Below the pieces are notes generated by a model. It did no database searches. It was not told the origin of the DNA and was given only the letters and a program-made list of their open reading frames with translations. Of a DNA stretch of 23,411 bases, positions 1-20,432 are shown in pieces. Origin of the DNA: Nitrososphaerota archaeon. GTDB taxonomy: Archaea; Thermoproteota; EX4484-205; JAAOZP01. Every line of letters starts with the position of its first letter. Position 1 is the stretch's first letter. The stretch spans positions 1 to 23,411 of the forward strand of contig JAAOZP010000006.1 of NCBI GenBank assembly GCA_011605725.1. Reading direction: 5' to 3'. The position numbers and the translations under genes are program-made.

Positions 1-3000
1 GTAGAATCTCAAAGGAGAATTGAAAGCGCTAAAGCTGGTTGGATGTCTTGGGGTTGCGCATATTGTAGAATCTCAAAGGAGAATTGAAAGTTGCCTCCCG
101 GCAGTCCTCCTCCTGGAATCTCCTCCTTAGTGTAGAATCTCAAAGGAGAATTGAAAGTAGGATACGTTAGCGGTGTTCACAACAGCTGTTTTGTTTTGTA
201 GAATCTCAAAGGAGAATTGAAAGAACGAGTTTTTGCCAGAACCCTCGGTCCAGTAGGCGATGTAGAATCTCAAAGGAGAATTGAAAGTAGCAATAAATCC
301 ATGCGTTCCAAGGGTTCTCCGACGGAGTAGAATCTCAAAGGAGAATTGAAAGGCTATTGGCTTGATACCGATGGCTCTACGATTTTCTGGCGTAGAATCT
401 CAAAGGAGAATTGAAAGTAGTGGTAGTCTGCATCCGATTCCCCCAGGTAGTAAAGAGGTAGAATCTCAAAGGAGAATTGAAAGAGTTTAACAAGCGTACC
501 TATGGTGTCGGATGGGGTCAGGTAGAATCTCAAAGGAGAATTGAAAGTTATATCTGTTAGCATGAGTATAACCATGAAACTTAAGTAGAATCTCAAAGGA
601 GAATTGAAAGTCATAAACGGCAACCCATGCATTCCAAGGGTTTTCAGGTAGAATCTCAAAGGAGAATTGAAAGACCAAGAATATCGGGAATAACCTTATG
701 ATTTTTTCCTTAAGTAGAATCTCAAAGGAGAATTGAAAGCTTGTGGCTTCCCCATGCGTCGCTTAACCTCTATGCGATGTAGAATCTCAAAGGAGAATTG
801 AAAGTGAGAAGCAACTGCCCTATGGCAAACGAATACCCTTCGTAGAATCTCAAAGGAGAATTGAAAGTCGTTTCCCCACTCTTTATCAGCTCGTCCAAAT
901 CGGCGTAGAATCTCAAAGGAGAATTGAAAGGAGAATAGAGTTCCTCCAGGTCACTTCCTTGTCGTTTCAAGTAGAATCTCAAAGGAGAATTGAAAGTTGA
1001 TAGATAGGGCGAGCAAGTTGATCAAGGAGCTTGCCGAGTAGAATCTCAAAGGAGAATTGAAAGTGAAGTCACGTTTACTCCTCCGGCAAACTGGGCTAAG
1101 ACGTAGAATCTCAAAGGAGAATTGAAAGCAGCCTCCTCCAGCAGCTCCTCCCACTCCCCTGGTTTCCTGTTGTAGAATCTCAAAGGAGAATTGAAAGCCT
1201 CCTGAATACTCTTTGAACAAGGGAGATGCCGGGCGTAGAATCTCAAAGGAGAATTGAAAGTAAAACCCTGGACGGAGGGTCGACAACCGCACCCGCGTAG
1301 AATCTCAAAGGAGAATTGAAAGACTCATTCAGGAGCTAAGACGCATTGGGACGAGTACTTCGGTAGAATCTCAAAGGAGAATTGAAAGAACGATTACAGG
1401 GGGAGCATCGTCGACCAGATCTCCGTAGAATCTCAAAGGAGAATTGAAAGCCTTCTCCCCGCCGACGCTGCACTTAATATCGCTCTGTTTCGTAGAATCT
1501 CAAAGGAGAATTGAAAGTTGAAACGGGGAGATTTCACGGAAAGGGGCTTAAAGGCTTAGTAGAATCTCAAAGGAGAATTGAAAGGTGTAATACCCTACGA
1601 CTCTAGCCACTCTTCACCACCGTAGAATCTCAAAGGAGAATTGAAAGTTCTTCTTTCTTTCCTCCTCAGCCTTTTTTCTTGCGTAGAATCTCAAAGGAGA
1701 ATTGAAAGCCGGCTTTTCTCCTTACGAATAATGTGGTTTCTTCCTCTGTAGAATCTCAAAGGAGAATTGAAAGCTTGTGGTCTCCCCCCGCTTGCTTGTC
1801 CGTCCTTGTCCCGTAGAATCTCAAAGGAGAATTGAAAGATATAGACGGCCAGCACTACTCCTAAAGCCCCCGCTCCAGTAGAATCTCAAAGGAGAATTGA
1901 AAGTTTTTGCTCTACTAACCTAAATGGAGGCTCAAAACTCGTGTAGAATCTCAAAGGAGAATTGAAAGAGAGCTTTATTTATTGACCACTCTATTTCTTC
2001 TTTTGGTTGTAGAATCTCAAAGGAGAATTGAAAGCCGTCATCGTGCCACCGGGGTTCTGGGCAACATAGGTGTTGTAGAATCTCAAAGGAGAATTGAAAG
2101 GCACAGACGAAGTCCCCCTCTGGGAATGGTTTCCCCATCTCTTTCCTCTGTAGAATCTCAAAGGAGAATTGAAAGTCGAATATCGACAGCCAGTTAATCG
2201 CTTGATACCGTCCAAGTAGAATCTCAAAGGAGAATTGAAAGATCCCAGAACCACGTTTTAATCAAGGATGCTTACGGTAGAATCTCAAAGGAGAATTGAA
2301 AGTCGTAGCCTACGAAGACCATTCCTCTCTGCCATGCTGTTATCGTAGAATCTCAAAGGAGAATTGAAAGATACTATAATCACTACCGTCCGGCAGTGTT
2401 ACCTTCACACGGGTAGAATCTCAAAGGAGAATTGAAAGGTAACAATATGGGAGTTAGAAATGCCGTGTAGCTTGCCCTGTAGAATCTCAAAGGAGAATTG
2501 AAAGTACATGCAGTGCCTGTTTTCATAGCCTTGCCAAGGCTTTCCAGTAGAATCTCAAAGGAGAATTGAAAGTCGATAATCTTGGAGACCTGCAGCCGGG
2601 TCATTTTCCTAAGTAGAATCTCAAAGGAGAATTGAAAGTACCAGTAGGGGCAGCAACTGCAGGTTGCCCCCTTCGGGTAGAATCTCAAAGGAGAATTGAA
2701 AGGTTTTTAAGTAAATCGTAGGCGGCAAATAGGCATTGGCTGGTAGTAGAATCTCAAAGGAGAATTGAAAGTGCTGCAGCCAAACCCTAGTCCAGAAGGA
2801 TTTAGCAGGTAGTAGAATCTCAAAGGAGAATTGAAAGTAGGTTATGATGATGTCTTCGGCTTCGTAGCTGAGGAGGAGCATGTAGAATCTCAAAGGAGAA
2901 TTGAAAGGCAGAGTTGAAAGATCCTTAAGAAAATCATTCCACCTGTGTAGAATCTCAAAGGAGAATTGAAAGTTATTCATGCTCCTCCTCAGCCTCCTCG

Positions 3001-3039
3001 AATTTGAAGCCGAGTAGAATCTCAAAGGAGAATTGAAAT
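1..3039 (+). CRISPR. CRISPR array: 47 copies of the 26-nt repeat GTAGAATCTCAAAGGAGAATTGAAAG with 46 spacers of about 35-49 nt; truncated at the window start, leader outside the window
   Basis: Repeats were counted at 1, 65, 132 ... 2947 and 3014. The last copy ends ATTGAAAT instead of ATTGAAAG. The + orientation is inferred from the canonical 3' ATTGAAAG handle and from degeneration at the right end. Confidence 0.99.
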
Positions 3040-3075: not shown

Positions 3076-3191
3076 GTTGAATCTCGTCAAAGAGATTAAA
3101 GGGTTATAGCAATAGTTGCTAAGGCTTTAAATAAGAATCTCGAAAAGGGAAATCATAAGTGGTTAATGATAACGATAAGAATCTCGCGCGC
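3076..3191 (+). repeat. Degenerate trailer repeats
   Basis: GTTGAATCTCGTCAAAGAGATTAAAG (3076-3101), TAAGAATCTCGAAAAGGGAAATCATAAG (about 3132-3159) and TAAGAATCTCGCGCGC (3176-3191) all keep the GAATCTC core, at decreasing spacing. Confidence 0.75.
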
Positions 3192-3192
3192 T

Positions 3193-3216
3193 TCTGAGGA
3201 TTAACTCAGATTTTTT
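3193..3216 (+). terminator. Putative array terminator (hairpin plus T6)
   Basis: TCTGAG-gattaa-CTCAGA is followed by TTTTTT, directly after the last degenerate repeat. Confidence 0.4.
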
Positions 3217-3255
3217 AATAGCTTTTTGACATCAAATTCTGTAAGCTCTATTACA

Positions 3256-4350
3256 TCATCTCCTAGGTTCCCAGCCCGCTCGTCGACAAGTATGCGATAA
3301 TCGAAATTCAAACCCTTCGAAGTCAACGCGCGCTAAGGCACGAAGTTTACTCCTCTTATCTTCTAATTCACGTCTCAGGGTAACTTCTAGTCCGATGAAC
3401 CTGTTTTCCTCTATCATTGCAAATACATCGCATTCACCTACTTTCTTGCCTTCGTCCGTAACTTCTAACTTCGGGATACTGGGTATTCCACTGTTCACCA
3501 TTTCCCTAAAGACTTCAAGCTCCAAAATCCCTCTTTCGCATAGCATTAACGACAACGCAGATTTAACGGTTTGAAAATCTGGCTCATCAGGCAATATTCG
3601 AGGTAAGATATAATTAAGCTGTTTGTATAAAGTCCTTCCCGCGTTTTTGAATTCATCTAACTGACACAGTTTATTTGTGAGCATTATGCATGCTCTCTTC
3701 TTGCTTTTTCTCCATTCGTCAGTAAAATTTACCAATATTCCATCTTCAAAAGTAAATCCATCAACTAACCTGAGTAACTTGATTAATTGGGATGAAATAT
3801 GCACGGGATCTTTAGTTCCAACTAGTTCGCAAAAGTAAGCTTGGACTCCAGTTTCTCCTATTTTCTCCTTATGCAACCTAACTGTTCCTTCACTAATTAA
3901 TTGCTCTAATTCTTTTCCGCAAGCATAAATTGATAGAAAACCTCTTTTTTCCTTTGAAAATTTTTGTAGCTCTTTATTTAAAGATTGGAAAAAGATTTGT
4001 AAAGATTTTACACGTTCATTACCGTAATCTCGCAGTTCATTAAGGTAGCATTTTTTATTTTTCTCAAGCATTTTATTAATACTTTTTAATACCCTATGTT
4101 CCCTTTTAATGCTATAAAATAATTTCTTATATTCTAAATTCACGAAAACTGAAAATAGATCATGTCCTAAAAATCGGGTTTCTGAACCGCTTTCGTCAAA
4201 TCTCTTTATCGATCTATCAAGTATGGAGAGTATTACTTCGAAAATTTTGGGGCGAATTTCTTCAAGAACCGCATCTTCGTCCATCCAACTAAATTTTTCT
4301 TCAAAATCTGTTTTGACTTCTTCTCTCTTCTCTTTATCCCAAAAATTCAA
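3256..4350 (-). CDS. Uncharacterised protein with a C-terminal PD-(D/E)xK-like nuclease domain; probably frameshifted near 3300-3333, with the natural stop at 3201
   Basis: 364-aa ORF with a TTG start, 42 nt after the last RAMP gene. Motif GILELEV...GECDVFAM...FIGLEVT. The +1 frame gives a natural-looking tail (LTSKGLNFDYRILVDE...KKLLKNLS*). Confidence 0.7.
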   Translation of the reverse strand: MNFWDKEKREEVKTDFEEKFSWMDEDAVLEEIRPKIFEVILSILDRSIKRFDESGSETRFLGHDLFSVFVNLEYKKLFYSIKREHRVLKSINKMLEKNKKCYLNELRDYGNERVKSLQIFFQSLNKELQKFSKEKRGFLSIYACGKELEQLISEGTVRLHKEKIGETGVQAYFCELVGTKDPVHISSQLIKLLRLVDGFTFEDGILVNFTDEWRKSKKRACIMLTNKLCQLDEFKNAGRTLYKQLNYILPRILPDEPDFQTVKSALSLMLCERGILELEVFREMVNSGIPSIPKLEVTDEGKKVGECDVFAMIEENRFIGLEVTLRRELEDKRSKLRALARVDFEGFEFRLSHTCRRAGWEPRR

Positions 4351-4392
4351 GAATAGTATGCTCGAATTCCTTTAACAGATATTGGTACCAGT

Positions 4393-5310
4393 CTATGGGC
4401 ATAGCCATTCCACGAACCTATCAAAGCTGACCCGTTCAGCTTTCCTCAGCGGATTTCCTATCCTGAACTCCACAGTTCTTCCATCACTTTCCGTATCCAA
4501 TATGTAAAACTCTCCACCAATAAGCTCCAAATGACCTAGGCCCGCGCTCTTTCTAGCACCGATTGAAACACCTAGTGTTTTGACAAGTTTAAGCGTTGAC
4601 GCAAAAAGCCTAGAATCCTCCTCGCCCCGTAGAAGGTTGTCCATGACCATTTTAAGCACGATGCGTCCCCTTGGCATGGCATTAATAAAGTATAGCAAGT
4701 TTTCCTTGACCTTCCCGCTTTTCCTATCTATCCCTATTCCAGGCCTTAGTGAAGGAGTTGCCATTATCAGCGAGTCGAAAAACCTAATCTTCCCAGCCAT
4801 TTTATTGCCGTAGAGTTTGCTTACGGGACAGTGTAACGCAAGGTACTCCTCTGCCATGGCTTCAAGCAATTCCTTCTCAGCACTTAAGCCTCTTTCCCTC
4901 ACCTCTTTTACCTCCTCTATGGCGTAGCCCAGTCCAACGAGGATTTCCTCCAGTTCTCTGGCTCCATGGGGTATATTCGATTCTCCTCCCTGAAGCGCCC
5001 TGACGAAGTTTTCTAAATATTTCCTGAATTTTTCCTCATTACTTCGATAACTAATTCCCATTTTCTCCGAGTAAAGCTCGACAGCCAATCCTGCGAGTCC
5101 TCCGAACTTGGCTTGTCTTGCTAGTTGCTCGCTCAGATTCCTAAACATGCCCTTCCATGTTGATGACGGTATTACTAACTCGCCTCCCGGAAGCCTGATG
5201 AGGTCCCTAACAACCTCATCTCCGCCGATTCCCACGTGTATTGGCGACTTAGCTTCGAACTCAACGATCCCGATGATTTTCATCTTTATCGGATTTAAAT
5301 GCAGAATCAT
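4393..5310 (-). CDS. Type III RAMP, Cas7 group (Csm3-like, with helical insertion)
   Basis: SPIHVGIG, VIPSSTWKGMFR, GIGIDRKSG and the G-rich loop IGARKSAGLG; ATGA overlap with the upstream gene. Confidence 0.9.
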   Translation of the reverse strand: MILHLNPIKMKIIGIVEFEAKSPIHVGIGGDEVVRDLIRLPGGELVIPSSTWKGMFRNLSEQLARQAKFGGLAGLAVELYSEKMGISYRSNEEKFRKYLENFVRALQGGESNIPHGARELEEILVGLGYAIEEVKEVRERGLSAEKELLEAMAEEYLALHCPVSKLYGNKMAGKIRFFDSLIMATPSLRPGIGIDRKSGKVKENLLYFINAMPRGRIVLKMVMDNLLRGEEDSRLFASTLKLVKTLGVSIGARKSAGLGHLELIGGEFYILDTESDGRTVEFRIGNPLRKAERVSFDRFVEWLCP

Positions 5311-6422
5311 TCTCCTCTACCTCCCATTGGATGTTCCCTGAGGGGGGTGAGCATGTTAACGCCAGTAACTGGTACTCCTCCCGCTACTTCCACAGTTCCT
5401 AAGAACTCGAGTGCACTAATGACTTTTGTTACTTCCCCTTCTCCCTCTACCTTTGCTACTAGAATCGAGCCATTATTGCCGCTTAAGCTGAAGATCGGCC
5501 TCTCCATGTTCCTCGCCATATCCCATCCGGAAATTAATTCCCTAGTCCTACCGTAAGCTGCCCCTATCCTTAATACTCCTTTAACACTCATGCCAATTCT
5601 CTTCGCAATTTTCTCAAGTTCTATAACATGTGGATAAGTATAATACTTCTCGCCATCTATTGAGATCATTTGGGAAATAGAATACAGTACAAGAGTAGCT
5701 TTATTTTCAATCGCATTTTTTACTGACTCAGCCTTTTCGTCGAGTGATATCTCTTTAAGCATTGTCAATTCAGCTCTACCAAATCCTCTGGAAACTCCTC
5801 TGCCAACTGCGAATTTCATACCTATTTCTAAGTTTACCTCATCAGGGACGCATAGCGTTGACCAGAATTCTTGACCTGACGAAATCGATTCGTATTCAAA
5901 CAGCATCCCTCTTTGATGGGAACCCTTACGTTTATTCATTCCAACGGATACCGTACGGTATGAACGCACCTTCACCTCTCTTAGGCGATTCTGGATAGGA
6001 ATAACCGGATCTGGATGAAGAGGGGAGATGGCCATATGCCCTTTAGAGCATAACACTTTATACTTCTGAGGATTGCGAGCAATAAAATCTTGTAGCACTT
6101 CATCCACATAGTTAATACGTTCCTTGCCCTCTGGAGCATCTTCATGGGGAATTTTACACTCGTATGCAAACGGGTGGCAGGGATATGCCCTTTTCTCATC
6201 GTCAATAGGATATGCTGGTGAAGCAATTATCCGGGGCTCTGTCGCCTCGCGTTTTAATAGCTCTTCATCCAATGCTCCTTTCCAATATAGGCTTGAGATC
6301 AATGCTCCTCTTAGCATTGAAGCAGGAATGTACTTAAGGGCAGAGAGAAATCCTTTTTCTGTTTTCTTAAACGTGATGTTTGCCGGCGATATGAGTTTGA
6401 AGTGTAATTCGTAAAACTTCAT
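5307..6422 (-). CDS. csx10: Type III-D Cas5-group RAMP (Csx10-like)
   Basis: YIPASMLRGAL, SPAYP, VGRGVSRGFG and C-terminal ISGWD...NGS motifs. Start placed at the ATGA overlap (6422), after the RBS GGAGGTGG. Confidence 0.8.
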   Translation of the reverse strand: MKFYELHFKLISPANITFKKTEKGFLSALKYIPASMLRGALISSLYWKGALDEELLKREATEPRIIASPAYPIDDEKRAYPCHPFAYECKIPHEDAPEGKERINYVDEVLQDFIARNPQKYKVLCSKGHMAISPLHPDPVIPIQNRLREVKVRSYRTVSVGMNKRKGSHQRGMLFEYESISSGQEFWSTLCVPDEVNLEIGMKFAVGRGVSRGFGRAELTMLKEISLDEKAESVKNAIENKATLVLYSISQMISIDGEKYYTYPHVIELEKIAKRIGMSVKGVLRIGAAYGRTRELISGWDMARNMERPIFSLSGNNGSILVAKVEGEGEVTKVISALEFLGTVEVAGGVPVTGVNMLTPLREHPMGGRGE

Positions 6423-7075
6423 TCCCATAACCACCTCCTCAAATCTTCCAAAAGAACTAACCAATCCCTCTCAAGCTTCTCTCTAAGAGGAGCCTCGTCT
6501 TCTATCATTAAGTCTATGATTGAAGCTCTGCCAAAACGTCCTATTCTCAGCTCTGCTAAGCCGAGAAGCAATAGGCCCAATAGCCTCGGATTTTCTTCTC
6601 GCACGCTTATATTGCCACTAAAGACGCTCCCGGGCGGCACATACTCGAGTGTGAATAAAGCTCCTTCTGCAGCCTTCATCGATTGGTCATCTATACGAAC
6701 TCTCGTCATCTCAAACATTTGCATGTGGTTAACAGGTTCGAAGTCTGAGACTAGAAGCTTGCTCGGCACGCTCCCCTTGGGATATCCGAATAGCTCGCAG
6801 ACGTCACAAACTCCTCCTGAGGAATGTGCTCTCTCAATCCCTTCCGGGCTGATTTCTCCACAGCTCTTGAAGCCATAGGGGGTTGCAATCCTGCTTGTTG
6901 CAGACCTTAGGCTTCCCTTAAAGCTTGATCCAGGAATGTATATTTCATAGGAATATTCCCTCCCTTTCTTCCTCAATACACGTGTAAATGGAATATCACA
7001 ACCAGCTGCACTCGGGTGGCTCCATCCCACACACATTAAACCAATCGTCTTTATCTTGACGGAGAAAGTTATCAT
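6419..7075 (-). CDS. Type III RAMP, Cas7/Csm3-like
   Basis: YIPGSSFKGSLRS, the Zn motif CDVCELFG and TRVRID. Start moved to 7075 (ATGA overlap with the cas10 stop, RBS GGAGGTGGAG). Confidence 0.9.
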   Translation of the reverse strand: MITFSVKIKTIGLMCVGWSHPSAAGCDIPFTRVLRKKGREYSYEIYIPGSSFKGSLRSATSRIATPYGFKSCGEISPEGIERAHSSGGVCDVCELFGYPKGSVPSKLLVSDFEPVNHMQMFEMTRVRIDDQSMKAAEGALFTLEYVPPGSVFSGNISVREENPRLLGLLLLGLAELRIGRFGRASIIDLMIEDEAPLREKLERDWLVLLEDLRRWLWE

Positions 7076-9723
7076 ATGGCTCCACCTCCAACTATCTTTA
7101 TCATTCTGTCTGCATCGATCAAGCATGAACTTTCTCCAACCTTCTGTGGAGTCAGCTTCAGGATCTCTGCATAGGGAGATGAACTCCCCATTCTCGTCGC
7201 TTGACGGATTCCATAAAGACGTGCCACAATAGGTATGTAGCTATTACTCTTAACCCTGGAACGGGCCACTGAAAGCGAGCTACCTATCGCGCTCCTAATC
7301 CCCTTAACCCTATCCTGTTCCTTCTTCACACTTTCCTTAAATCCATTGCCACATAACTCAGGAAATCTTGAAAGAGCGTAGCATTTTCCGAATGCCTCCG
7401 CGTCGCTGGAATACCCATTTATAACGATTCTAAACAAGTCTTCTACACCATAAGGCTGTGAACTGAGGAATTGTTCTTTCAACAAATCAAATCTTGCCTC
7501 TGCAGAACTATCCGATAGTGTTCCGCTATCCACAGCGTCGAAGCAGAATAGACTTAATGACGGATTTTTCCTCGCCTCTGCTTTAGCTTTTCCCATCAGC
7601 ATGGAGGCCGCCGAGACTATTGCCCATACGCTAGCCCTTGCCGGCGAAGATACCAAACCCATTGATAGCCCCCTTGCGCCTCCCATGTTAGCAGAAAACT
7701 CTCTTCCAAGCACTAAGGCAAACGGCAGGATGCCCCATGAGGGCATGAAGAATAATGCATCGTCCCCTCCAGCATACAATAACCCCAGTTTCACTGAGAC
7801 CGCTGCTCTAGCCGCTTCATCATCGTTTTTAGAAATATTCTGCACGCCTTCCCATATCTTTTCAACACTATATTCGATCGCCTTCTTTAGCGCCAAGTCT
7901 ATCCTAGCGCTTCTCTCATACGCATCTGCAGCAGAGAGACAAGTCGCCATGAAAACGCCCATAAGGTTTCCATCCACCTTCATAATTCCAAGGTTTCTAA
8001 GGCGGATTTTCCCTTCTAGTTCCTCCTTATTATGACCAGCTATGAGTTCCACTATCCATTTACTTGCCCCGTCCCAATCCGCATGAAAGACTTGTCTAGG
8101 AACGAATGTCCTATTCTTCACAATAATTTCGGATTCATATTTTACTCTAAAGTGAAGATCTCCTCCTATTTCATACAACTTTTTACACGTTCCACAGACC
8201 TCCTTTTCCCCTTCAGGGGTTAAGACCTTCTCTTCAGGAGGATTAAGGTAACAGAGCTTACATAGATTCCTAACGCCTTTCCCCGGGCTCGTCTTTACAA
8301 ACCGGTCTTCCGGCTTCATGCTGAACTTCTTAAACTGAATTTTCTCCGTGAGGTTCTGCGTGGTCTCTCTATAATTAGTACTTAAGGGGACTGATGCAAA
8401 CCTGACGGATATCTCCTTTATCTCTTCACAAGCCTTTTCCAGCGTACCGACTAAATTCGATGGAAGGATTAGCTGTATAACTCCTCCTGCCGAGTAAATT
8501 ATGGCCTCATAAGGGAGCCAAACATCGCGGCTTACATGGTGCTGAATCATAGACGGTATTTGAGCCATCACCGCCGCATCGATCATAAGGCTCGCGGCAA
8601 CGACCACCCTGAGTTCCTCAGACTTGAAGACAAAGGATTGGATGTTTCCAACGTCTATCAACGCCATCTCAACGCCATCGACGATTCTACCACCAGCCAT
8701 TTCGACGGGTTTTGTGTAATTCTCTGCTCTTTTGCGTATTTCTTCAACGAACATCCTACTGAGATCATCTATGGATGCATTGTCATATTGATGTAGCTTT
8801 TTCCAAAATTCCCAGCATTCTGGCCCAGCCCTATAAGCAGCATCCTCATTAATCCCTGCTTTGTTAGATAAATTACGTATCCTCTCACCAATTATCGTCC
8901 CGCCCAAACTTATAAGTCCATCGAAGAATGTAGCAGCATCATCAGCTTCCGACAACATCTGGGCTTCTCTGCTTTGAATCTCCTTTATCTCGCTCACGTA
9001 ACTCTTTCCTTCTAAAAGGATCTCAGCTATTTCTGATGAAGCCGTGACAGGATCTGTGTATCTGAAGGGCTTGCCCATATCCCGCAACATGGCTGCCAGT
9101 CTTAACATAGCCGTCTCTTTTCTAGGAAGCCCATTGGCCGTGGCCTTAGCCCACGCTATAGCGGAAGCGAGGAGGAGATGAGGCAGAAGCCCAGAAGTAT
9201 TCAAGGGGGGCCTAGTGTCCGCAGGCAGAGCGAACCAACAGTGCTCGATTTTCTCAGAGAGGTCAGCATCAGAAAGGATGGCTATGGGCTTTAGTTCATT
9301 GAGTCTCTTCACAATATCTTCTCTGTAGGTTAATTCAATGAACCTCACCGGGCTCCTGATCTCGTCCTGAATTTTTTCGAAGCCGATTAGCCTGTAAAGC
9401 AGGTAAGTTTTCAGGGGATTTGGCATCACCGCAGGGATTGTTTCCCTTATCAATGGAACCCTTAGAAAAAGCGCTATCAAGTCGGCGAGTAGCTCCAATT
9501 CCTCTGTTTGGTTCAAATTTCCCTCTCGCATGCGTTTAGCGAATTCTAACGCCTCGGATAGGAACTCCTTTAACCTTCGTAATACATTTTTCCAGATTTC
9601 TACGTCTTGTGGTGTTACCTTTCTCGTCGAAACTACTCTGTCTTCATCCCTGTAAGGAACAAAGAATGCTTTAAAGACCGGATAACCGGGTTCTTCAAAT
9701 TTCACTTCGTCAAAGCTTCTCAA
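7072..9723 (-). CDS. cas10: Cas10 large subunit; Palm GGDD intact, HD site degenerate
   Basis: 883 aa with ADTRP, DVGNIQSFVF, the CxxC...CxxC Zn finger, KVDGNLMG and LLYAGGDD (GGDD at 7759-7770). The HD position reads LRDMGKP. Confidence 0.97.
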   Translation of the reverse strand: MRSFDEVKFEEPGYPVFKAFFVPYRDEDRVVSTRKVTPQDVEIWKNVLRRLKEFLSEALEFAKRMREGNLNQTEELELLADLIALFLRVPLIRETIPAVMPNPLKTYLLYRLIGFEKIQDEIRSPVRFIELTYREDIVKRLNELKPIAILSDADLSEKIEHCWFALPADTRPPLNTSGLLPHLLLASAIAWAKATANGLPRKETAMLRLAAMLRDMGKPFRYTDPVTASSEIAEILLEGKSYVSEIKEIQSREAQMLSEADDAATFFDGLISLGGTIIGERIRNLSNKAGINEDAAYRAGPECWEFWKKLHQYDNASIDDLSRMFVEEIRKRAENYTKPVEMAGGRIVDGVEMALIDVGNIQSFVFKSEELRVVVAASLMIDAAVMAQIPSMIQHHVSRDVWLPYEAIIYSAGGVIQLILPSNLVGTLEKACEEIKEISVRFASVPLSTNYRETTQNLTEKIQFKKFSMKPEDRFVKTSPGKGVRNLCKLCYLNPPEEKVLTPEGEKEVCGTCKKLYEIGGDLHFRVKYESEIIVKNRTFVPRQVFHADWDGASKWIVELIAGHNKEELEGKIRLRNLGIMKVDGNLMGVFMATCLSAADAYERSARIDLALKKAIEYSVEKIWEGVQNISKNDDEAARAAVSVKLGLLYAGGDDALFFMPSWGILPFALVLGREFSANMGGARGLSMGLVSSPARASVWAIVSAASMLMGKAKAEARKNPSLSLFCFDAVDSGTLSDSSAEARFDLLKEQFLSSQPYGVEDLFRIVINGYSSDAEAFGKCYALSRFPELCGNGFKESVKKEQDRVKGIRSAIGSSLSVARSRVKSNSYIPIVARLYGIRQATRMGSSSPYAEILKLTPQKVGESSCLIDADRMIKIVGGGAI

Positions 9724-10681
9724 TGGTGGACACCTCGTCCTTTACGTCTAGCTCTCCCTCGTAGGTTCTCATGGCGCTCTCAACAAGGGTCCTAACAAGA
9801 GTGTTCAGATCTTCTCCCTCTAAGCTCCCCCCAGGGTTGATGGAGATATTTTCAAACTTTATATGCTCCGAATACTCAGAAAGCTTTAGCCTTTCCAAGT
9901 GGTATATTATCCTACCGAGTTCATATCCTCCAACCTGCTTTCTGTATTTAAACCTACCAAGCAGAACGGCCCTGCCTCTAGCCGAAACTTTCAAACCCAT
10001 TCCAATAAAAAGGAGGCCCAGCTCCTCTTGCCTGAGATTGAGAAAACTGACGGAACCGCGGAACTTGGAGTTCGGGGGAGCGGCGAGAACGTTCACCTCA
10101 TGTTCCAGATCAAGCCTTTCCAACCGGATTCCTTCTCCCTTAAAGTCTGAGAAGCTTATAAGACCTTGGAGGCCGTTCGTGCCGAACAAATCGCAGACCA
10201 AACATACTTGCTGGTTCCTCGTTGAATCGCAAGACCAACCTCTATTCTCCATAAGAACCTCCCCCCAAATCTTATAGTGCCTCCATCCATGGAGACGAGC
10301 AACTGGCGGACGAGTGGGAGCAGTAGCCCGTATGAAGCATGACTTCGTTTTTCCATTTCTGGCTCTGAAGCTGAGTTCAATCCTTGACCTGATGTTTCCT
10401 TTAACAGAGGATGCGGGAATAGTCGGCACATTATTCGTCGTATGGAAACTCGAGTACTTCTCCTCAAACTTAACGCTGGATATAGCCTCGCTTGTTAAGC
10501 CCCCGTACTTATTGAGAACCTTAATCAATTCTTCCTCATTCATCAGATGTTGTTCTTGCGCCGAGCCAATATACAAATAGGAAATAGGTTCGATAGTAAC
10601 CGAGAGAGAACCTACTAGATGCTCAAACCTGCTCCTATCCCTCGGTCGAGCTCTAATGACTTCGACTCCTAGAGATTGCAT
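9710..10681 (-). CDS. Type III RAMP, Cas7 group
   Basis: YLYIGS, TIPASSVKGNIRSRIEL, CLVCDLFGT and LLGRFKYR. Confidence 0.88.
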   Translation of the reverse strand: MQSLGVEVIRARPRDRSRFEHLVGSLSVTIEPISYLYIGSAQEQHLMNEEELIKVLNKYGGLTSEAISSVKFEEKYSSFHTTNNVPTIPASSVKGNIRSRIELSFRARNGKTKSCFIRATAPTRPPVARLHGWRHYKIWGEVLMENRGWSCDSTRNQQVCLVCDLFGTNGLQGLISFSDFKGEGIRLERLDLEHEVNVLAAPPNSKFRGSVSFLNLRQEELGLLFIGMGLKVSARGRAVLLGRFKYRKQVGGYELGRIIYHLERLKLSEYSEHIKFENISINPGGSLEGEDLNTLVRTLVESAMRTYEGELDVKDEVSTIEKL

Positions 10682-11585
10682 TTATCCAGGCCTCCTTGAG
10701 CTTTTCTAAAACGCTCCATACGTCATGGTCCTCCGCCACCTGCCACCCATCCTCAATTCTAACAATCCCTTGTAAGTTTACTTCACTGTCAAGACCCTCT
10801 TCCAAACTTTTTAATATTCCATCAACACTTTGGGGGAACTCCCTATTCTTGAATCTTATATTCTCAAACTTGACTTCTCCGAAGCCCCTTGTCTTGAATC
10901 CGCCTATTTTAACTTGACCTTCATTAATCATGCGTAAAACGATGCCTAAGAGGCCTAGCGCGTAATTTGGAAGGTTTGTACACTCCATTTTAAACCTAAA
11001 CTTGGCGCCTGGCTCCACATACTCCACAGTATAAAGGGCATGTTCCATTACGGCCCCGGTTCTCCTATTGATTGCTATTCCGGTTCTCGCACCAAGCCTG
11101 ACTGGAAGCGGGTTTCCATTCTCATCAAGAGGATATGCATCGCTGAAGCGGATTTTGCCTGCATAACCCAGTGAACCAAATATTTTGCACATTAAACATG
11201 CTTTCTTGAAGAAGGCATCCATAGCATCCTTCGAATTCCTACTCCTCAACTTAAGTTCCACGTATCTTCCAAGGGTCTGTTCCCCGAGCTCAGGATCCTC
11301 TATCTGCTTAAGATCCATACATGTTTCTTTGGCTAACCCAGTGCACACATCGAGTTTAGCGCTCTTCGCCATACTCGATGTATAACTCCTGAAAATGCCT
11401 TTGATGCTTGAGCCCGGAATGTACGGAAGAAATTCATCTTTATATGGAATCCTGAGGACGGCTAGGTCAACAACTGCACCCAGTGGAGGCTCTCTACCAC
11501 TACCGATACGAAGTGGCGAGCTGTTCGTTAAATACCCCTCTACGACTGTCTCTCTAAGCAGGATAGACGAAGATGTCCAATACAT
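10653..11585 (-). CDS. csm3: Type III Csm3-like Cas7 RAMP (Csx7-like)
   Basis: PLRIGSG..VVD (putative catalytic Asp), YIPGSSIKG, CLMCKIFG and IGGFKTRGFG. Confidence 0.9.
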   Translation of the reverse strand: MYWTSSSILLRETVVEGYLTNSSPLRIGSGREPPLGAVVDLAVLRIPYKDEFLPYIPGSSIKGIFRSYTSSMAKSAKLDVCTGLAKETCMDLKQIEDPELGEQTLGRYVELKLRSRNSKDAMDAFFKKACLMCKIFGSLGYAGKIRFSDAYPLDENGNPLPVRLGARTGIAINRRTGAVMEHALYTVEYVEPGAKFRFKMECTNLPNYALGLLGIVLRMINEGQVKIGGFKTRGFGEVKFENIRFKNREFPQSVDGILKSLEEGLDSEVNLQGIVRIEDGWQVAEDHDVWSVLEKLKEAWINAISRSRSH

Positions 11586-12292
11586 TATTTACCTCCCCCT
11601 AACCGACCTTCCGATAGTATCTTGATTTCTCCGCCTTCCAAGGAGTATGTCGACCACTTGGCTGTCCTGAGCTTTAAAAGACCACATCCCACTCCTTTTC
11701 TCGCGCCTACACTTATTCCCATTTTAAGCAAGTAGTCAAGCAAGCCCCCCAATAACTCTGCCCTCGGATCGTCTATATCCGGTTCAGGTAAGAATCTGAT
11801 GTTCAAGACATCCATTCTAAACGACCAGAGAGTATTTGGGACCACTAACTCTTCAGTAAATAAAAGCCCGGGTCTCGCTGCATGAAATTCCCTGTCAATG
11901 CTGACTCCGGTTTTAGTGAAGGTGCGTGCCGAACCATTCTTAGGATACGCATCGTAAATCTTGATATGGCTCGCTAATTCTGTTGAGCCGAATATTCCAC
12001 ATATGGAACAAAAGTTTCCATCTTTAGCCTCCTGCTTAATTTCATCTTCATCCCAGGGAGAATGGGCACGCATTCCTTTAGATAACGCTATCGACTCGAC
12101 CAGTGACCTGAAAACACCTTTTAAGCTGGACCCTGGGATACAGGGTATCCCGTCAATCCTGTACACAGCAACGTCTACTGCAGCACCTAGTGGTGGCTCT
12201 CTGCCGGTGCCAATACGAAGCGGTGTTTCGTTGATCAGCTCTCCCTCTATCTTCGTAATGAGCTTTATTAGGTTAAAATCTCTGTATTCCAT
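11585..12292 (-). CDS. csm3: Type III Csm3-like Cas7 RAMP
   Basis: PLRIGTG..AVD, IPGSSLKG, CSICGIFG and VGARKGVGCG. Confidence 0.9.
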   Translation of the reverse strand: MEYRDFNLIKLITKIEGELINETPLRIGTGREPPLGAAVDVAVYRIDGIPCIPGSSLKGVFRSLVESIALSKGMRAHSPWDEDEIKQEAKDGNFCSICGIFGSTELASHIKIYDAYPKNGSARTFTKTGVSIDREFHAARPGLLFTEELVVPNTLWSFRMDVLNIRFLPEPDIDDPRAELLGGLLDYLLKMGISVGARKGVGCGLLKLRTAKWSTYSLEGGEIKILSEGRLGGGK

Positions 12293-12299
12293 CTCCCAT

Positions 12300-12674
12300 T
12301 CACGTAGCGCGTACTCCCGCTAGCATTCTTAATAAGTCTGTGAATTCGTTAGGGGTCCTTTCAAGTCTGGTTTTCTCAACTATTTCGAAGATCCATTTCG
12401 CTAATCCAAGAAGTTTCCTTGCATCTTCCTTTCCTCCCTCTCGGTATATTCGCTCTAGTGCATTAGCCACTAAATCGGCTGTTCTCTTCCCTTTTCCAAG
12501 CCTCGAGGTCTGTCTGTAGGCAAAGGCAGCGGCAACAAGTAGGCTTGCCTTAGGATCTTGAACGTAATCTAAGGATGATAAGAGGTTTTCGAATTGCGAT
12601 TTTGTTAAGCCATCAAATTTAGCCTGTACCCCTATTTTTGTAGCAATATCAAGAGCCTCCTTATCGGAAATCAT
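12300..12674 (-). CDS. cas11: Cas11 small subunit (Csm2-like)
   Basis: 124-aa helical protein, first gene of the operon, with YRQTSRLG and ARKLLGLAKWIFE. Confidence 0.8.
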   Translation of the reverse strand: MISDKEALDIATKIGVQAKFDGLTKSQFENLLSSLDYVQDPKASLLVAAAFAYRQTSRLGKGKRTADLVANALERIYREGGKEDARKLLGLAKWIFEIVEKTRLERTPNEFTDLLRMLAGVRAT

Positions 12675-13166: not shown

Positions 13167-14558
13167 TTATCCTTCCGGGTTAAATAACCACTTACATATT
13201 TCTGGTAATTTTTCTTTTATATATCTTAGTTCTAGCTCTTCATTCTGTTTTCTTACTTCAACCATAGTTCTTTCTAATCCCGAGTGCGCGAAAAAGTTTC
13301 TTTTAATATCTGATGTGCTTAGAGCCTTTTCTTTCTTCTCTTCCGAAGTCCCTTCTTGATATAACTCGTTTAGACAAGTCCATTGCTGGGTAACCTTGTT
13401 CTTCTTATTATCTATTTCACTTAGGTCTCTTTCTAGAAACCTCTTATTTAACGATAGATCTAGTTTATCATAGATTTCGGTGAATCTTTCTTTAATCTCA
13501 GTAATGCTCACTCCATCTTTTATCTCTAATCCTTCCATTTCGCTAGATATCCATTTGAATAAGGCAAGTGAATAGAACAGGTTGAAAACATCCTTCCACT
13601 TCAAGTTATTGACAGCGACTATTTTTTCGCTTAGCACTGGTTTCGTTTTTTCTAGGAAGAAGCATATTAGTTCCTTTTCAAGAACTTCTACTTTTTGATC
13701 AAGGTTTATTAACCCGCTATAAAAAGCTAGAGGCACATTATACTTTATAGAATGAAATGCTTTGACGAGGTTGTCTAACAAATATTTCAGTTTCGTCTTT
13801 TCGTCTTTAGTTTCATAAGAAATCCTTTTTTTCTCCTCTGGATTAGTTTCGACATAGTATTCGATTTTACATAAAGTTTCTAAATTCTGGGGCTTGATTG
13901 GTAAAGTGAAAAATGCTTTTACATCATACTCGTTAACGAATATTCTTATGGTGTGACGCAACTCTTCACTAAGCTTAGTTACTGGTTCAGAGATTGCGTA
14001 AAAAGCGTTAATTTTTTTCTCAGTTATTCCATTTCTTAACTTATCATAGACAATTATAGCTCTTAAGGCTTCCAGCATGGAGGTAACGTAAATGTTGTAT
14101 CCGGTAGACATGTCTGTAACTACTATTGTTTTCTCTCCGTTTTCATTAATTCTTTTCATTATGTCGAGAAATATCTGTACAGCAACATTGCCAGGAGTGT
14201 TTTTGAAGCTAAATCTTTCTTGACCGATCATATAGTTTCCGATAGCATTAATTGGTAAGATCTCAAAATCTTTGTAATTGCTTATATTACTTATCTTGTC
14301 TCGGAGGCTCTCAGCTAATGAAACTCTGTCTGTTAAATACTTTTGTATGTCCTGCCCTCTGTAAAGGCTGTTTGGACAAACGTATATTATCTTGGCTTCA
14401 TATCCTTTCTTCTCCCTATAATAAGAATATAGAACTTCAGATGAAAGCTTAAAATCCCTTCTTATGAAACTGCCTGCATCATCACCGTCTTCTATTTCAT
14501 AAGTAACGCTTGAATATCCTTCCAGATTACCAAGAACTTGGTATATCAGGGCCTTCAT
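13167..14558 (-). CDS. csx1: Csx1 CARF-HEPN cyclic-oligoadenylate-activated RNase
   Basis: N-terminal CARF (QVLGN..Y, DMSTGYN) and C-terminal HEPN RxxxxH (KRNFFAHSGLE). Confidence 0.93.
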   Translation of the reverse strand: MKALIYQVLGNLEGYSSVTYEIEDGDDAGSFIRRDFKLSSEVLYSYYREKKGYEAKIIYVCPNSLYRGQDIQKYLTDRVSLAESLRDKISNISNYKDFEILPINAIGNYMIGQERFSFKNTPGNVAVQIFLDIMKRINENGEKTIVVTDMSTGYNIYVTSMLEALRAIIVYDKLRNGITEKKINAFYAISEPVTKLSEELRHTIRIFVNEYDVKAFFTLPIKPQNLETLCKIEYYVETNPEEKKRISYETKDEKTKLKYLLDNLVKAFHSIKYNVPLAFYSGLINLDQKVEVLEKELICFFLEKTKPVLSEKIVAVNNLKWKDVFNLFYSLALFKWISSEMEGLEIKDGVSITEIKERFTEIYDKLDLSLNKRFLERDLSEIDNKKNKVTQQWTCLNELYQEGTSEEKKEKALSTSDIKRNFFAHSGLERTMVEVRKQNEELELRYIKEKLPEICKWLFNPEG

Positions 14559-14698: not shown

Positions 14699-15481
14699 AT
14701 GGTGTTGAGGTTGAAGCTCTCGGTAATTGCCCCGATAGGTACTTCTCCGCCTGTGGTTACGGAGTTTGTTCAATATGTTGAGGATGGTTTGAGAGAGCGT
14801 ATTAGTGATCTTACGGTTATAAGCACTAGTGATCCTTATGTTCTGAGTTGCACCGATCTCGCTGAGCAAGCTGTCCGGGATAGGTATCCTCATATTTATT
14901 TCCACAGGCATCAGCTTGGTTTCGAGGATATTGATTCTCAGGACAGGCTTTACGAGTTTATGCTTGACGTGGCTAAGCTGCTTAGAAATCAGGTGGAGCA
15001 GTTTAACGCCAGTAAGATTTACGTGAACTCTGCCGGAGGTAGGAAGGATGCGCTCATAGCGCTTTCAACGCTCTGTCAGTTCCTGCCTGTCTCAGGAATA
15101 TTTCACATCGTGATGCCTGATGTTAAGACGTTCAACGTACAGCTGGAGAGGATTAAGCATGAGATCGAGGAGCTCGGCAGGGCGGTTGATAAGAGAGCTT
15201 ACTACTTGAGTAAGAGGGATTTGTTCGACCCTCTGATGTATCCTCATCCGAGCACCTACTCTGTGGTTAGGATTCCGGTTGTCCCCTTTCCCCCGGGGGT
15301 TCTGGGGAATCTGGCGAAAATATTGAAGGGGGGTAAGACGGAGATAGTGACTACTGGATTAGAGCAGAGGCACATAGAGATGCTTGTAGATATTGGGCTT
15401 ATCACTGCAGACAAGAGATACGTGTACCCTACGGATGAGGGGAGGCTCTTATCCACGTTGATTAAAACGCTCGTCGAATAA
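14699..15481 (+). CDS. CARF + wHTH protein, Crn1/Csx14-like ring nuclease
   Basis: APIGTSPPVVTE, EDID and VNSAGGRK motifs of the Sso2081/Csx14-type CARF; C-terminal wHTH (LVDIGLI...YPTDEGR); divergent from csx1. Confidence 0.8.
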   Translation: MVLRLKLSVIAPIGTSPPVVTEFVQYVEDGLRERISDLTVISTSDPYVLSCTDLAEQAVRDRYPHIYFHRHQLGFEDIDSQDRLYEFMLDVAKLLRNQVEQFNASKIYVNSAGGRKDALIALSTLCQFLPVSGIFHIVMPDVKTFNVQLERIKHEIEELGRAVDKRAYYLSKRDLFDPLMYPHPSTYSVVRIPVVPFPPGVLGNLAKILKGGKTEIVTTGLEQRHIEMLVDIGLITADKRYVYPTDEGRLLSTLIKTLVE

Positions 15482-15727: not shown

Positions 15728-16090
15728 TCAATAAAAAACTAGTCCGTATTTTTCCAGCCCCTCGTAATGCTTAATGTTTCTCGTTAACAGCTTAAATCTC
15801 TTCACTACTGCTGTGCCACCTATTATTAGGTCCCTGTCCTCAACAAGCCTGCCTGAGGCCCTGAGGCTCCTCCATATTTCCGAGGCTTTCTCCAGAATCT
15901 CGTTGTCGAGCCAAACAATGCTGAAGGATCTCTCCAGTATTTTCTTAGCCTCCTTCACATTCCTCGTCCCCCTGATGAACTCGTAGACAGTTATTTCCGA
16001 CACATAATGTGAATCCTCCGGGTTTAACTCCAGTCCTCCCTTATAGTAATCGATTAGACAGTCTGTATCCACTAGTATTCTCTCGCCCAT
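15728..16090 (-). CDS. vapC: VapC PIN-domain toxin
   Basis: ILVDTDCLID, SEITVYE, EDRDLIIGGTA and LLTRNIKHY. Confidence 0.92.
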   Translation of the reverse strand: MGERILVDTDCLIDYYKGGLELNPEDSHYVSEITVYEFIRGTRNVKEAKKILERSFSIVWLDNEILEKASEIWRSLRASGRLVEDRDLIIGGTAVVKRFKLLTRNIKHYEGLEKYGLVFY

Positions 16091-16536: not shown

Positions 16537-16890
16537 TTAGTACAATAATAGGGGTCTCTCCTTCAGAGTTCCGGTTGCGGGGTCGACTTCGAAGCCGAGG
16601 GTTTCTAGGACAACGACGCCTAGCAAAACCCTGTCTATGAAATCAGATATCCACACGTCGAAAGGCCCCTCCTTATCCTTCAACCTTATCCATGCCCTCC
16701 CTCTTTTCACCTTAACCATTCCGGCTCCAGTCATGACTTTCTCCTCGCTGACGGGCTCGATCCCAATTTCCTTAGCGATTTTTTCAGGCAGCGCTGTCAG
16801 AGTTGCCCCCGTGTCAACCAATGCTTTCAATTTTACAGGCTTCTTCCTTTCTAAGCTTGACACCTCTATCTCAACCCAAGAATGCCCCAT
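16537..16890 (-). CDS. Clan AA (retropepsin-like) aspartic protease
   Basis: ALVDTGATLT catalytic motif and VLLGVVVLETLGFEVDP; 117 aa. Confidence 0.9.
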   Translation of the reverse strand: MGHSWVEIEVSSLERKKPVKLKALVDTGATLTALPEKIAKEIGIEPVSEEKVMTGAGMVKVKRGRAWIRLKDKEGPFDVWISDFIDRVLLGVVVLETLGFEVDPATGTLKERPLLLY

Positions 16891-18367: not shown

Positions 18368-18417
18368 TTTATGAATATGTTCATGATGATTGTAATCATG
18401 ATGAACACGTTCATAAA
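18368..18417. promoter_or_regulatory. Triple palindromic operator ATGA-N6-TCAT (15-bp period) over the ATPase promoter and start
   Basis: ATGAATATGTTCAT g ATGATTGTAATCAT g ATGAACACGTTCAT, flanked by TTT and AAA. Confidence 0.7.
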
Positions 18418-19759
18418 TAGGAGCAAGGAGCTAAGCTTTCTAGAAGAGAGGTACCGCTCCCCCAAGGCTGAGCTCATAGTGGTGTATGGGCGAAGGAGGG
18501 TGGGAAAGACCTTCCTTTTGAGGAGGTTTCTCTCAGGAAAAAGAGGCGTGTACTTCGTGGTTTCTAGGCTAGGCAATACTCTTCAAGAGATCTCGGAGGC
18601 GATAGGTGAACAACTAGGTGTTCATCCACCTTTATTACGTCACTACACTGATTTATTCAGCTACATAGCGAAGGAAAGCAGTGATGAAAGGATCATCCTC
18701 GTCATCGATGAGTTTCAGCGATTGGCGGAATACGACCCCACGTTTCTCACAGAACTACAGGCGGCTTGGGATGATTTTCTCAGCTACTCCAAGGTTTTCC
18801 TCGTGCTAAGCGGTTCCTCAGTAGGAGTTGTTGAAAGAGCTGCCTTGTCGTCTTCTTCACCCGTCTTCGGGAGACGCACGGGGCAACTTAAAGTGAAGCC
18901 ATTCACATTTACATGCGTCAAGGAGTTTGTCCCCATGTGGTCGTGTGAGGACAAGGTCAGAACTTATGCAGCTTTTGGAGGGGTTCCCGCATACTTATCG
19001 CTGCTCGACTGCTCCAAGAGTCTTCTTGAAAACATTAAAAATCTAATACTTGAGCCGGGAGGATTACTGCACGAGGAACCATATTTCCTCCTAGCAGCTG
19101 AGACCCGAGAACCATTAAGATACATGACAATACTGGAAGCGATGGCATCCGGATCCACAACCCTCGGCGAGATAGCTTCGAAAAGCGGGCTCTCATCAAG
19201 CGAGTTGCCAAGGTATATGAGGACCCTTGAAGCACTTCTCGACATTGTGGAGAAGAGATATCCTTTGCTAGAGGAGGGGAGACGTGGAAGAGCCAGGTAT
19301 GTTATAAAGGATAATTTCCTCCACTTCTGGTTCAAGCACGTTAGGCCAAGCCTCCACCTTCTTGAGCTCGGGGAAGTAGAACGCGTAGCTAGAAGGGTTT
19401 CAGAGCAACTGGATGAATACGTTTCCAGAATCTTTGAGGAGATTGCACTCGAACACTTTTCCCATTCGGTGCCCGCGCTGAAAGTTGGTAGGTGGTGGCG
19501 GGGCGAAGTGGAGATAGACGGGATAGCTATCGACGAGAAGAACAAAGTCGCATACTTCATGGAGGCGAAATGGTCAAAACATCCTTTAGACAGGTCTGTT
19601 CTTCGGGAGCTCGAAAGAAAAGCCGGAGAATTCGAATGGGGAAAAGAAGGGCGGAAAGAAGTCTACTGCATATACTCTAGAAGCAGCTTCACCTTTGCAC
19701 CCGAAGAAAACGTGAAGCAAGTCAACCTATCGGAAGTCTGCAACCAGCCATGCAGCTAA
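18401..19759 (+). CDS. Archaeal AAA/STAND ATPase with wHTH and a C-terminal DUF234/PD-(D/E)xK domain
   Basis: FINRSKEL, Walker A YGRRRVGKT, Walker B VIDEFQ, SGSS and EVEIDGIA...MEAKW. The start could be 18398 or 18401. Confidence 0.92.
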   Translation: MNTFINRSKELSFLEERYRSPKAELIVVYGRRRVGKTFLLRRFLSGKRGVYFVVSRLGNTLQEISEAIGEQLGVHPPLLRHYTDLFSYIAKESSDERIILVIDEFQRLAEYDPTFLTELQAAWDDFLSYSKVFLVLSGSSVGVVERAALSSSSPVFGRRTGQLKVKPFTFTCVKEFVPMWSCEDKVRTYAAFGGVPAYLSLLDCSKSLLENIKNLILEPGGLLHEEPYFLLAAETREPLRYMTILEAMASGSTTLGEIASKSGLSSSELPRYMRTLEALLDIVEKRYPLLEEGRRGRARYVIKDNFLHFWFKHVRPSLHLLELGEVERVARRVSEQLDEYVSRIFEEIALEHFSHSVPALKVGRWWRGEVEIDGIAIDEKNKVAYFMEAKWSKHPLDRSVLRELERKAGEFEWGKEGRKEVYCIYSRSSFTFAPEENVKQVNLSEVCNQPCS

Positions 19760-20115: not shown

Positions 20116-20432
20116 GGCTTTCAAAATACTTTAGCAGAGTGCTTGCTAGTCTCGTAATAGGGGGCTTTCCTTTAGTGTTGGGGTTCCAGGTCGGCTTCGA
20201 AGCTAATGGTTCGAGGACGACGATACTTGGCAGAACAAGGTTTTGCGAGGCTTAAAACAGCTGTCGAATCGCTTACCCGCGCTCTCCACCGTGAAGGCTG
20301 GAGTTGAATGAAGCTTCTCATGCCTCTATGTGTAGAAACGTGTTTTCATGGTTATCGAAAATGATAACTTTGAATACGCGCTATTTTTGCAGCACAATAT
20401 TTTTATATTTCAACCCGTTTCCAAGAGAAGGC

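Follow-up and report, generated by a model that had tools for sequence, protein, structure and literature searches.

Which gene closes the type III-D operon of this archaeal genome, and how could its product be coupled to the effector complex encoded just before it? The stretch analysed here, hereafter the window, is 23,411 nucleotides (nt) long and comes from contig JAAOZP010000006.1 of a Nitrososphaerota archaeon. We use X as a working name for the last gene of its type III-D operon, in which an earlier note, made from the sequence alone, had seen a candidate undescribed ancillary nuclease. We found that X is a member of an undescribed family of ~400-amino-acid (aa) proteins. Its members combine an N-terminal helical domain, which evolves fast, with a predicted metal-dependent nuclease domain of the Can2/Card1 type, and have no CARF domain. 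In archaeal operons of the SsoCsm type (III-D1), from Thermoproteota, the gene is optional and usually comes last, apparently co-translated with the preceding gene.

The open reading frame (ORF) called for X (3256-4350, minus strand, 364 aa, TTG start) lies 42 nt past the last RAMP gene, whose stop is at 4393. The earlier note had correctly seen a co-oriented ORF at this distance; the true ATG, however, is located before the cas7 stop, with a 16-nt overlap. The reference for the borders was L002, a metagenome contig of the Joint Genome Institute (JGI) that encodes P0002 (405 aa, 68% identity), an intact homologue and the only close relative of X among 5.8 billion clustered proteins. Three-frame translation, DNA alignment to L002 and tblastn-type matches in three frames gave X an extent of 3201-4408 in place of the called ORF, since the called borders are artefacts of two frameshifts:

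3201-4408, minus strand: gene X in its corrected extent, from ATG 4408-4406 to TAA 3203-3201, two frameshifts read through
4341-4345, minus strand: frameshift 1 (+1), a T5 run in the window against T4 in L002, which cuts the first 22 codons off from the rest of X
3334-3335, minus strand: frameshift 2 (-2), 2 nt absent compared with L002, just before a GCGCGCG run
4393-4408, minus strand: 16 nt shared by the start of X and the end of the last cas7 (stop TAG 4395-4393), an arrangement typical of translational coupling

The 22 codons from the ATG at 4408 are preserved, in a different frame, and are very similar to the beginning of P0002, and ~40 terminal codons, ending with TAA 3201-3203, are preserved in a third frame with 90% identity to P0002. 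Frameshift 2 puts the called ORF out of frame for its final 30 residues; strand beta-4 and the terminal helix, which form the true C-terminus, are encoded in another frame. That X is frameshifted at both ends was not mentioned in the earlier note on this gene. The AT-richness of the gene, already pointed out, was confirmed over the corrected extent, with a GC content of 0.356 in X (3201-4408) versus 0.459 in the RAMP and cas10 genes and 0.343 in csx1.

The X family is rare: HMMER, run exhaustively over 1.84 billion representatives, recovered 20 proteins at E <= 0.001, mostly ~380-430 aa long, with a mutual identity of only 20-30%. No Pfam, NCBIfam or PADLOC model was assigned to them, and their source names read only "hypothetical". 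Single-sequence and whole-length-profile searches with X found nothing in Pfam, NCBIfam, PADLOC or the PDB except coiled-coil noise, due to the N-terminal helices, and a language-model atlas search returned weak, unnamed rows only. The AlphaFold2 model built on the family alignment (pLDDT 87.7, pTM 0.85) places helices up to residue ~297, with one small hairpin between, before a nuclease core formed by helix 298-310, strands 315-323, 326-338 and 341-348, helix 354-369 and strand 373-380. This core has the PD-(D/E)xK topology, with E301 on the helix, E330 and D332 on strand 2, and E346 and T348 on strand 3. The protein could thus be divided into two domains:

3928-4408, minus strand: N-terminal helical domain, ~160 aa (P0002 1-163), delimited on AlphaFold2 models; the fastest-evolving part of X
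3201-3927, minus strand: predicted nuclease domain, ~240 aa (helical subdomain plus alpha-beta-beta-beta-alpha-beta core), delimited with VIA-align over model residues ~164-405, in agreement with Foldseek, ESM Atlas and PDB profile alignments

In a VIA-align structural search of 48,161 PDB representatives, the seven best matches to the X model, over residues ~164-405 and with Z scores of 8.8-10.5, were all CRISPR nucleases activated by cyclic oligoadenylate (cOA):

6sce: Can1, Z 10.5, 163 aa aligned, root-mean-square deviation 3.4
1xmx: VC1899, Z 10.2
8bao: Can2, Z 10.1
6wxw: Card1, Z 9.7
7bdv: Can2, Z 9.7
8q3y: Can2, Z 9.1
8z4i: Cdn1, Z 8.8

Generic nuclease folds (Bax1, NucS and others) ranked next, from Z 7.9 downward. 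Foldseek gave VC1899, Card1, Cdn1 and Can2 as top matches of the same model, and Card1_endonuc clusters appeared in the top rows of an ESM Atlas shape search. As modelled, the C-terminal part of X is a restriction-endonuclease (PD-(D/E)xK) fold of the Can1/Can2/Card1 kind; such a fold had been supposed in the earlier note and is indeed predicted. With the corresponding Pfam family, PF09002 (Card1_endonuc), neither the window protein nor P0002 gave a match at E <= 0.01, and a search of the phylum with it for true Can2 genes recovered only sub-threshold matches in Rad50-like and NERD/Mrr proteins. With Can2 and Card1, as well as VC1899, Can1 and Cdn1, X has in common the ~240-aa nuclease domain, including the helical subdomain, and the E-x-D motif; Can2/Card1 and X are moreover both encoded in type III loci, including III-D. 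In contrast, Can2/Card1 have a CARF domain where X has a helical bundle of ~160 aa, and the Lys of their ECK motif is an invariant Thr in X. Can2/Card1 are also separate ancillary genes, whereas X closes the effector operon and begins within the preceding cas7. The matched Can1, Can2, Card1 and Cdn1 nucleases are all tied to type III systems via CARF and cOA, and X would be the same module coupled otherwise, within the effector operon.

Four positions are invariant in the X family (E301, E330, E346 and T348, in P0002 numbering) and three more are nearly so (F305, P317 and D332). K/R318 is kept in all members but one, and among the basic residues past the ExT motif, R350, K356 and K/R360 are each present in most members, not all. 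The C-terminal E...ECD...LEVT motif read previously in the window protein is present and invariant, or nearly so, across the family. The putative active-site residues, identified from the conservation table, the family alignment and the alignment onto ExD/ECK of VC1899 and SthCan2, are located as follows (window ORF numbering):

3373-3522, minus strand: whole stretch of putative active-site residues
3520-3522, minus strand: E277, putative active site
3469-3474, minus strand: P293-K294, putative active site
3433-3435 and 3427-3429, minus strand: E306 and D308, putative active site, GECDVF motif
3385-3387, 3379-3381 and 3373-3375, minus strand: E322, T324 and R326, putative active site, GLEVTL motif

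The profile of the X core aligned its E-x-D with E291/D293 and E276/D278 (VC1899 and SthCan2), active-site residues that have been mutated (PMC7969007), and its E-V-T with E-C-K, so that ExT stands in place of ExK, as the earlier note had proposed. The Lys of PD-(D/E)xK enzymes, two residues past the acid of strand 3, is absent in X, where an invariant Thr is found instead.

X could then be a catalytically dead nuclease fold, acting as a nucleic-acid-binding or a regulatory or scaffold accessory, comparable to the inactive nuclease-like domain 2 of Can1. The absence of the hallmark Lys in all members is in line with this possibility, as are the inactivity in vitro of VC1899 (PMC7969007), which is among the nearest structural matches, and the fact that X is dispensable and often broken (see below). 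It nevertheless appears quite improbable, since the invariance of E301, E330 and E346 and the near invariance of D332, at 20-30% identity, are hard to explain without metal binding, and Thr occupies this position in an active Can2 as well. In this enzyme, TbrCan2, SxTTS replaces ECK, with Ser356 as the equivalent of Card1 Glu308 and Thr at the Lys position, and both single-stranded DNA (ssDNA) and single-stranded RNA (ssRNA) are cut with Glu304, Glu341, Asp343, Lys369 and Glu372 (PMC10783487). The ExT of X is therefore not necessarily dead. TbrCan2 and X both have Thr at the Lys position, followed in the former by the essential K369 ~11 residues downstream and in the latter by a mostly conserved Lys 8 residues downstream. 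They differ in that TbrCan2, which belongs to clade 1 of Can2, has Ser where X keeps Glu, and in its CARF domain and activation by cyclic tetra-adenylate (cA4). From these sequence comparisons, we consider it rather likely that the X family is a live metal-dependent nuclease, which would cut single-stranded nucleic acid at the ExD...ExT acidic metal site. The family also offers a natural test of the dispensability of the ExK lysine in this nuclease clade.

The position of X was compared between genomes with reference to the operon that it closes, annotated from Pfam, NCBIfam and PADLOC matches:

4393-12674, minus strand: type III-D1 (SsoCsm-like) effector operon closed by X
12300-12674, minus strand: cas11/csm2
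11585-12292, minus strand: cas7 (Csx7-type)
10653-11585, minus strand: cas7 (Csx7-type)
9710-10681, minus strand: cas7 (Csx7-type)
7072-9723, minus strand: cas10, best PDB match 8bmw_K (1.2e-31)
6419-7126, minus strand: cas7
5307-6464, minus strand: csx10/cas5
4393-5310, minus strand: last cas7, best PDB match 8bmw_N (Sso1432, Cas7b; 5.8e-26)

The gene order of this operon (cas11, three cas7, cas10, cas7, cas5/csx10, cas7) is that of sso1424-1432, the eight-gene order of the III-D complex SsoCsm of Saccharolobus solfataricus (PDB 8BMW, PMC9945777). We recovered the same order in all nine loci with flanking sequence, namely the window relatives L001/L002, L006-L012, and L029, a metagenome-assembled genome of Caldarchaeales found with a three-sequence alignment. 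In eight of the nine, X is last and starts 16-34 nt inside the preceding cas7; the overlap is 16 nt in L002, L006, L007, L008, L012 and L029, and 31-34 nt in L009 and L011. In L010, X is divergently transcribed and adjoins cas11. Linkage was also apparent in a sample of 151 genomes of the phylum, where a Cas7b-type gene occurs in 15 genomes, eight of these have a detectable X, and eight of the nine genomes with an X match also carry the Cas7b-type gene. X lies directly downstream of that gene wherever both coordinates are listed, and this position is taken by very divergent X homologues in two further loci (hhalign 97.5% and 65%). Each homologue with a readable neighbourhood adjoins an operon of the SsoCsm type, and the homologues of X are thus consistently linked to type III loci, in agreement with the association put forward in the earlier note. 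In the remaining genomes of the sample with a Cas7b-type gene, cas7b is followed by csx1, csa1 or unrelated genes, and X is present in only one of 13 genomes of the same genus. From this pattern of presence and absence, we consider X a frequent but optional add-on to this III-D branch, and accessory genes may vary at this end of the operon. Where X is missing from SsoCsm-like loci (L031, L034 and L032; G066, G026 and G145), cas7b is followed by csa1, which encodes a Cas4-like PD-(D/E)xK exonuclease, or by csx1.

Co-expression with the backbone subunits could also mean that X does housekeeping for the module, for example by trimming crRNA (CRISPR RNA) 3' ends or by processing nucleic acids for adaptation like Cas4/Csa1. 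Can2-type enzymes cut both ssRNA and ssDNA (PMC10783487), and in two loci without X the slot after cas7b is occupied by Csa1, another PD-(D/E)xK nuclease. A gene that is lost in about a third of the loci, swapped as a diverged allele and fast-evolving fits poorly with such a role, and SsoCsm matures and works without X; we thus regard a housekeeping function as very unlikely.

The window and L002 are 97-100% identical from 12589 to ~4650, after which identity drops from ~4640 through X down to ~3150:

3150-4650, minus strand: replaced allele, 64-91% identical to L002 by sliding-window identity

The swapped tract corresponds to the last ~85 codons of cas7b plus X, so that the breakpoint falls inside the neighbouring subunit gene. 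Between the two copies of X, the synonymous divergence (dS) is 0.66 and the ratio of nonsynonymous to synonymous divergence (dN/dS) 0.27. Recombination has replaced the allele in this tract, in a gene that was under purifying selection; the divergence is not due to in-place decay. This dN/dS indicates that the allele has been functional during most of its past, and the frameshifts must be recent. Judging from its reading frames, the window copy, interrupted twice, has probably been inactivated recently and is non-functional. Programmed frameshifting was set aside, the two shifts being at unrelated sequences and the homologues being read in one frame.

The two frameshifts could instead be assembly errors in an organism with an intact X. 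One break falls in a T5 homopolymer and the other adjoins a GC repeat, both shifted segments keep conserved peptide coding, and the genome is a 20-contig metagenome-type assembly. We rated real frameshifts likelier, because the ~8 kb of the operon that are 97-100% identical to L002 contain no indel, so that the assembly does not appear indel-prone. Independent broken copies of X also occur in other genomes: the copy in G120 (L022/L028, G120:C122) has two TAG and one TAA in frame, and in G041 (L021, G041:C40) X is apparently broken, the N-terminal ~100 codons being in a different frame from the rest. Assembly error is thus fairly unlikely, though it is the alternative under which the window genome would still encode a complete X.

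How the nuclease would be controlled depends on the N-terminal domain. The earlier note had described a helical or wHTH-like N-terminus of ~260 aa without CARF or SAVED. It is indeed all-helical and without CARF or SAVED matches; the separate domain, however, is only ~160 aa long, the residues from ~164 onward belonging to the nuclease domain. No CARF or SAVED domain was found in X in the Pfam, NCBIfam and PADLOC scans, and a structure search of the N-terminal domain likewise gave no CARF. Folded alone, this domain matched generic helical bundles only, with VIA-align Z <= 8.4, a level that counts as noise for helical proteins. In the family alignment, none of its 160 residues is invariant, and dN/dS in the helical domain was 0.43 versus 0.18-0.28 in the other segments tested. 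The domain was also considered as a possible Cas11 duplicate and this was rejected, since a profile-profile comparison with the Cas11 of the locus indicated no relation (probability 0.15%).

The closest relatives of the nuclease domain are all signal-activated, signalling is active in all X loci, which have an intact cyclase-type Cas10 together with further CARF effectors, and X is AT-rich like csx1, with an allele exchanged between near-identical operons. These features would suit a free-standing ancillary effector like Can2, in which the helical domain is a new sensor of the Cas10 product (cOA or another nucleotide) replacing CARF. Against such a sensor, the domain is a plain helical bundle without any invariant residue, although a ligand pocket normally leaves conserved positions, and it resembles neither CARF, SAVED nor another nucleotide-binding fold; known ancillary effectors, moreover, rarely have a start that overlaps a core subunit gene as consistently as that of X does. 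We therefore consider this alternative unlikely. The lack of a conserved pocket in the helical domain and the constancy of the start overlap with cas7b across loci lead us to favour recruitment or control by the complex over the sensing of a small signal. Either the helical domain would recruit X to the effector complex, or the complex would switch X on through it; we give about even chances to X being a nuclease recruited to or controlled by the effector complex and not by a known signal sensor. A predicted complex of the last Cas7 with X had a score of 0.00, which is no answer and speaks neither for nor against binding.

Extra nucleases encoded in the effector cassette, and proposed to be complex-associated, have been described previously, namely the NucC-Cas10 fusion (PMC11229360) and Csx26 of Sulfolobus variant systems (PMC6546367, PMC7694759). 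Their folds differ from that of X, NucC belonging to a different endonuclease family and Csx26 being annotated as HNH or possible Cas11. A more specific scenario, possible though on balance doubtful, would make X a ninth, detachable subunit of III-D1 complexes, whose helical domain docks at the Cas7b/Cas5/Cas10 end and whose Can2-type site is activated directly by target-RNA binding, without a second messenger. The conserved terminal position of X and its start overlap would be indirect hints of such a subunit. X would then possibly be a relative of the ancestor that gave rise to the CARF-fused Can2/Card1, and the hypervariability of the docking domain, together with allele swapping, would reflect an arms race with viral inhibitors.

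Several observations weigh against an active nuclease working with the complex. The solved native SsoCsm consists of eight subunits, with no X-like protein and no ninth component in the operon (PMC9945777), so that X is not needed for assembly of the complex. About a third of the genomes with a Cas7b-type gene have no detectable X, and X is dispensable, given the broken copies in the window, in G120 and probably in G041. No fused or longer form (Cas7-X, CARF-X, or X with another Cas protein) was found, which is weak evidence. At the active site, the second motif reads E-[VI]-T, with Thr for Lys in all members (T348 in P0002, T324 in the window ORF), and the possible equivalence of K356 of X to Lys369 of TbrCan2 is a guess from spacing. 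The sequence matches to the nuclease families were also low. When the X core-domain profile was compared with 177,635 PDB sequences, VC1899 came first (E 0.25) and SthCan2 second (E 0.88), which is not significant alone, and the best result with PF09002 was E 0.045, obtained for two of 14 X members and under the curated cut-off.

Should X prove active and complex-bound, it would represent a third route of nucleic-acid destruction by type III systems, beside the Cas10 HD domain and the signal-activated effectors, and would account for the unannotated gene that comes after the Cas7b-type gene in roughly two of every three SsoCsm-like loci sampled in Thermoproteota. For the window genome itself the finding is more modest, its copy of X being probably dead, as is the Cas10 HD domain. 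In the window (8940-9200), the latter is decayed, with LRDMGKP (RD for HD), an 11-residue deletion removing HH, and DPV for DHV; the GGDD motif is intact, and Cas10 of L002 is in the same state. It had been suggested that X replaces a dead Cas10 HD domain. This does not hold as a general rule, since all HD motifs are kept in six of the eight X-bearing loci and decayed only in the window and the near-identical L002. With its Cas10 HD domain probably non-functional like X, defence in the window genome would rest on the Cas10 cyclase and on Csx1 signalling.

The other elements of the CRISPR locus are arranged around the operon as follows:

13167-14558: csx1, upstream of the operon
14699-15481, plus strand: Csx14-type CARF gene, divergent from csx1 (NCBIfam TIGR03642, 2.3e-26; PADLOC CARF5, 1.3e-69)
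1-3029, plus strand: CRISPR array of 48 repeats (GTAGAATCTCAAAGGAGAATTGAAAG), converging on X; it begins at base 1 and so runs off the contig

The last repeat of the array is degenerate (...GAAAT, 3004-3029), and repeat-like remnants (TAAGAATCTCG) are present at ~3127 and ~3171, almost up to the stop codon of X. The Csx14-type CARF protein (14699-15481) has a weak match to the Crn1 ring nuclease (1.6e-4) and is a candidate ring nuclease or regulator. Further along the window, 18371-19759 (plus strand) encodes an archaeal protein with ATPase_2, DUF234 and HTH domains, which matches the PADLOC candidate defence family PDC-S27 (7.9e-50); the ORFs 20304-21590 and 21578-23410, downstream of this ATPase gene, had no family match. 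Between the CRISPR module and the ATPase gene are a PIN-domain (VapC-like) gene and a gene for a retropepsin-like aspartyl protease, at 15728-16090 and 16537-16890, respectively, both on the minus strand.

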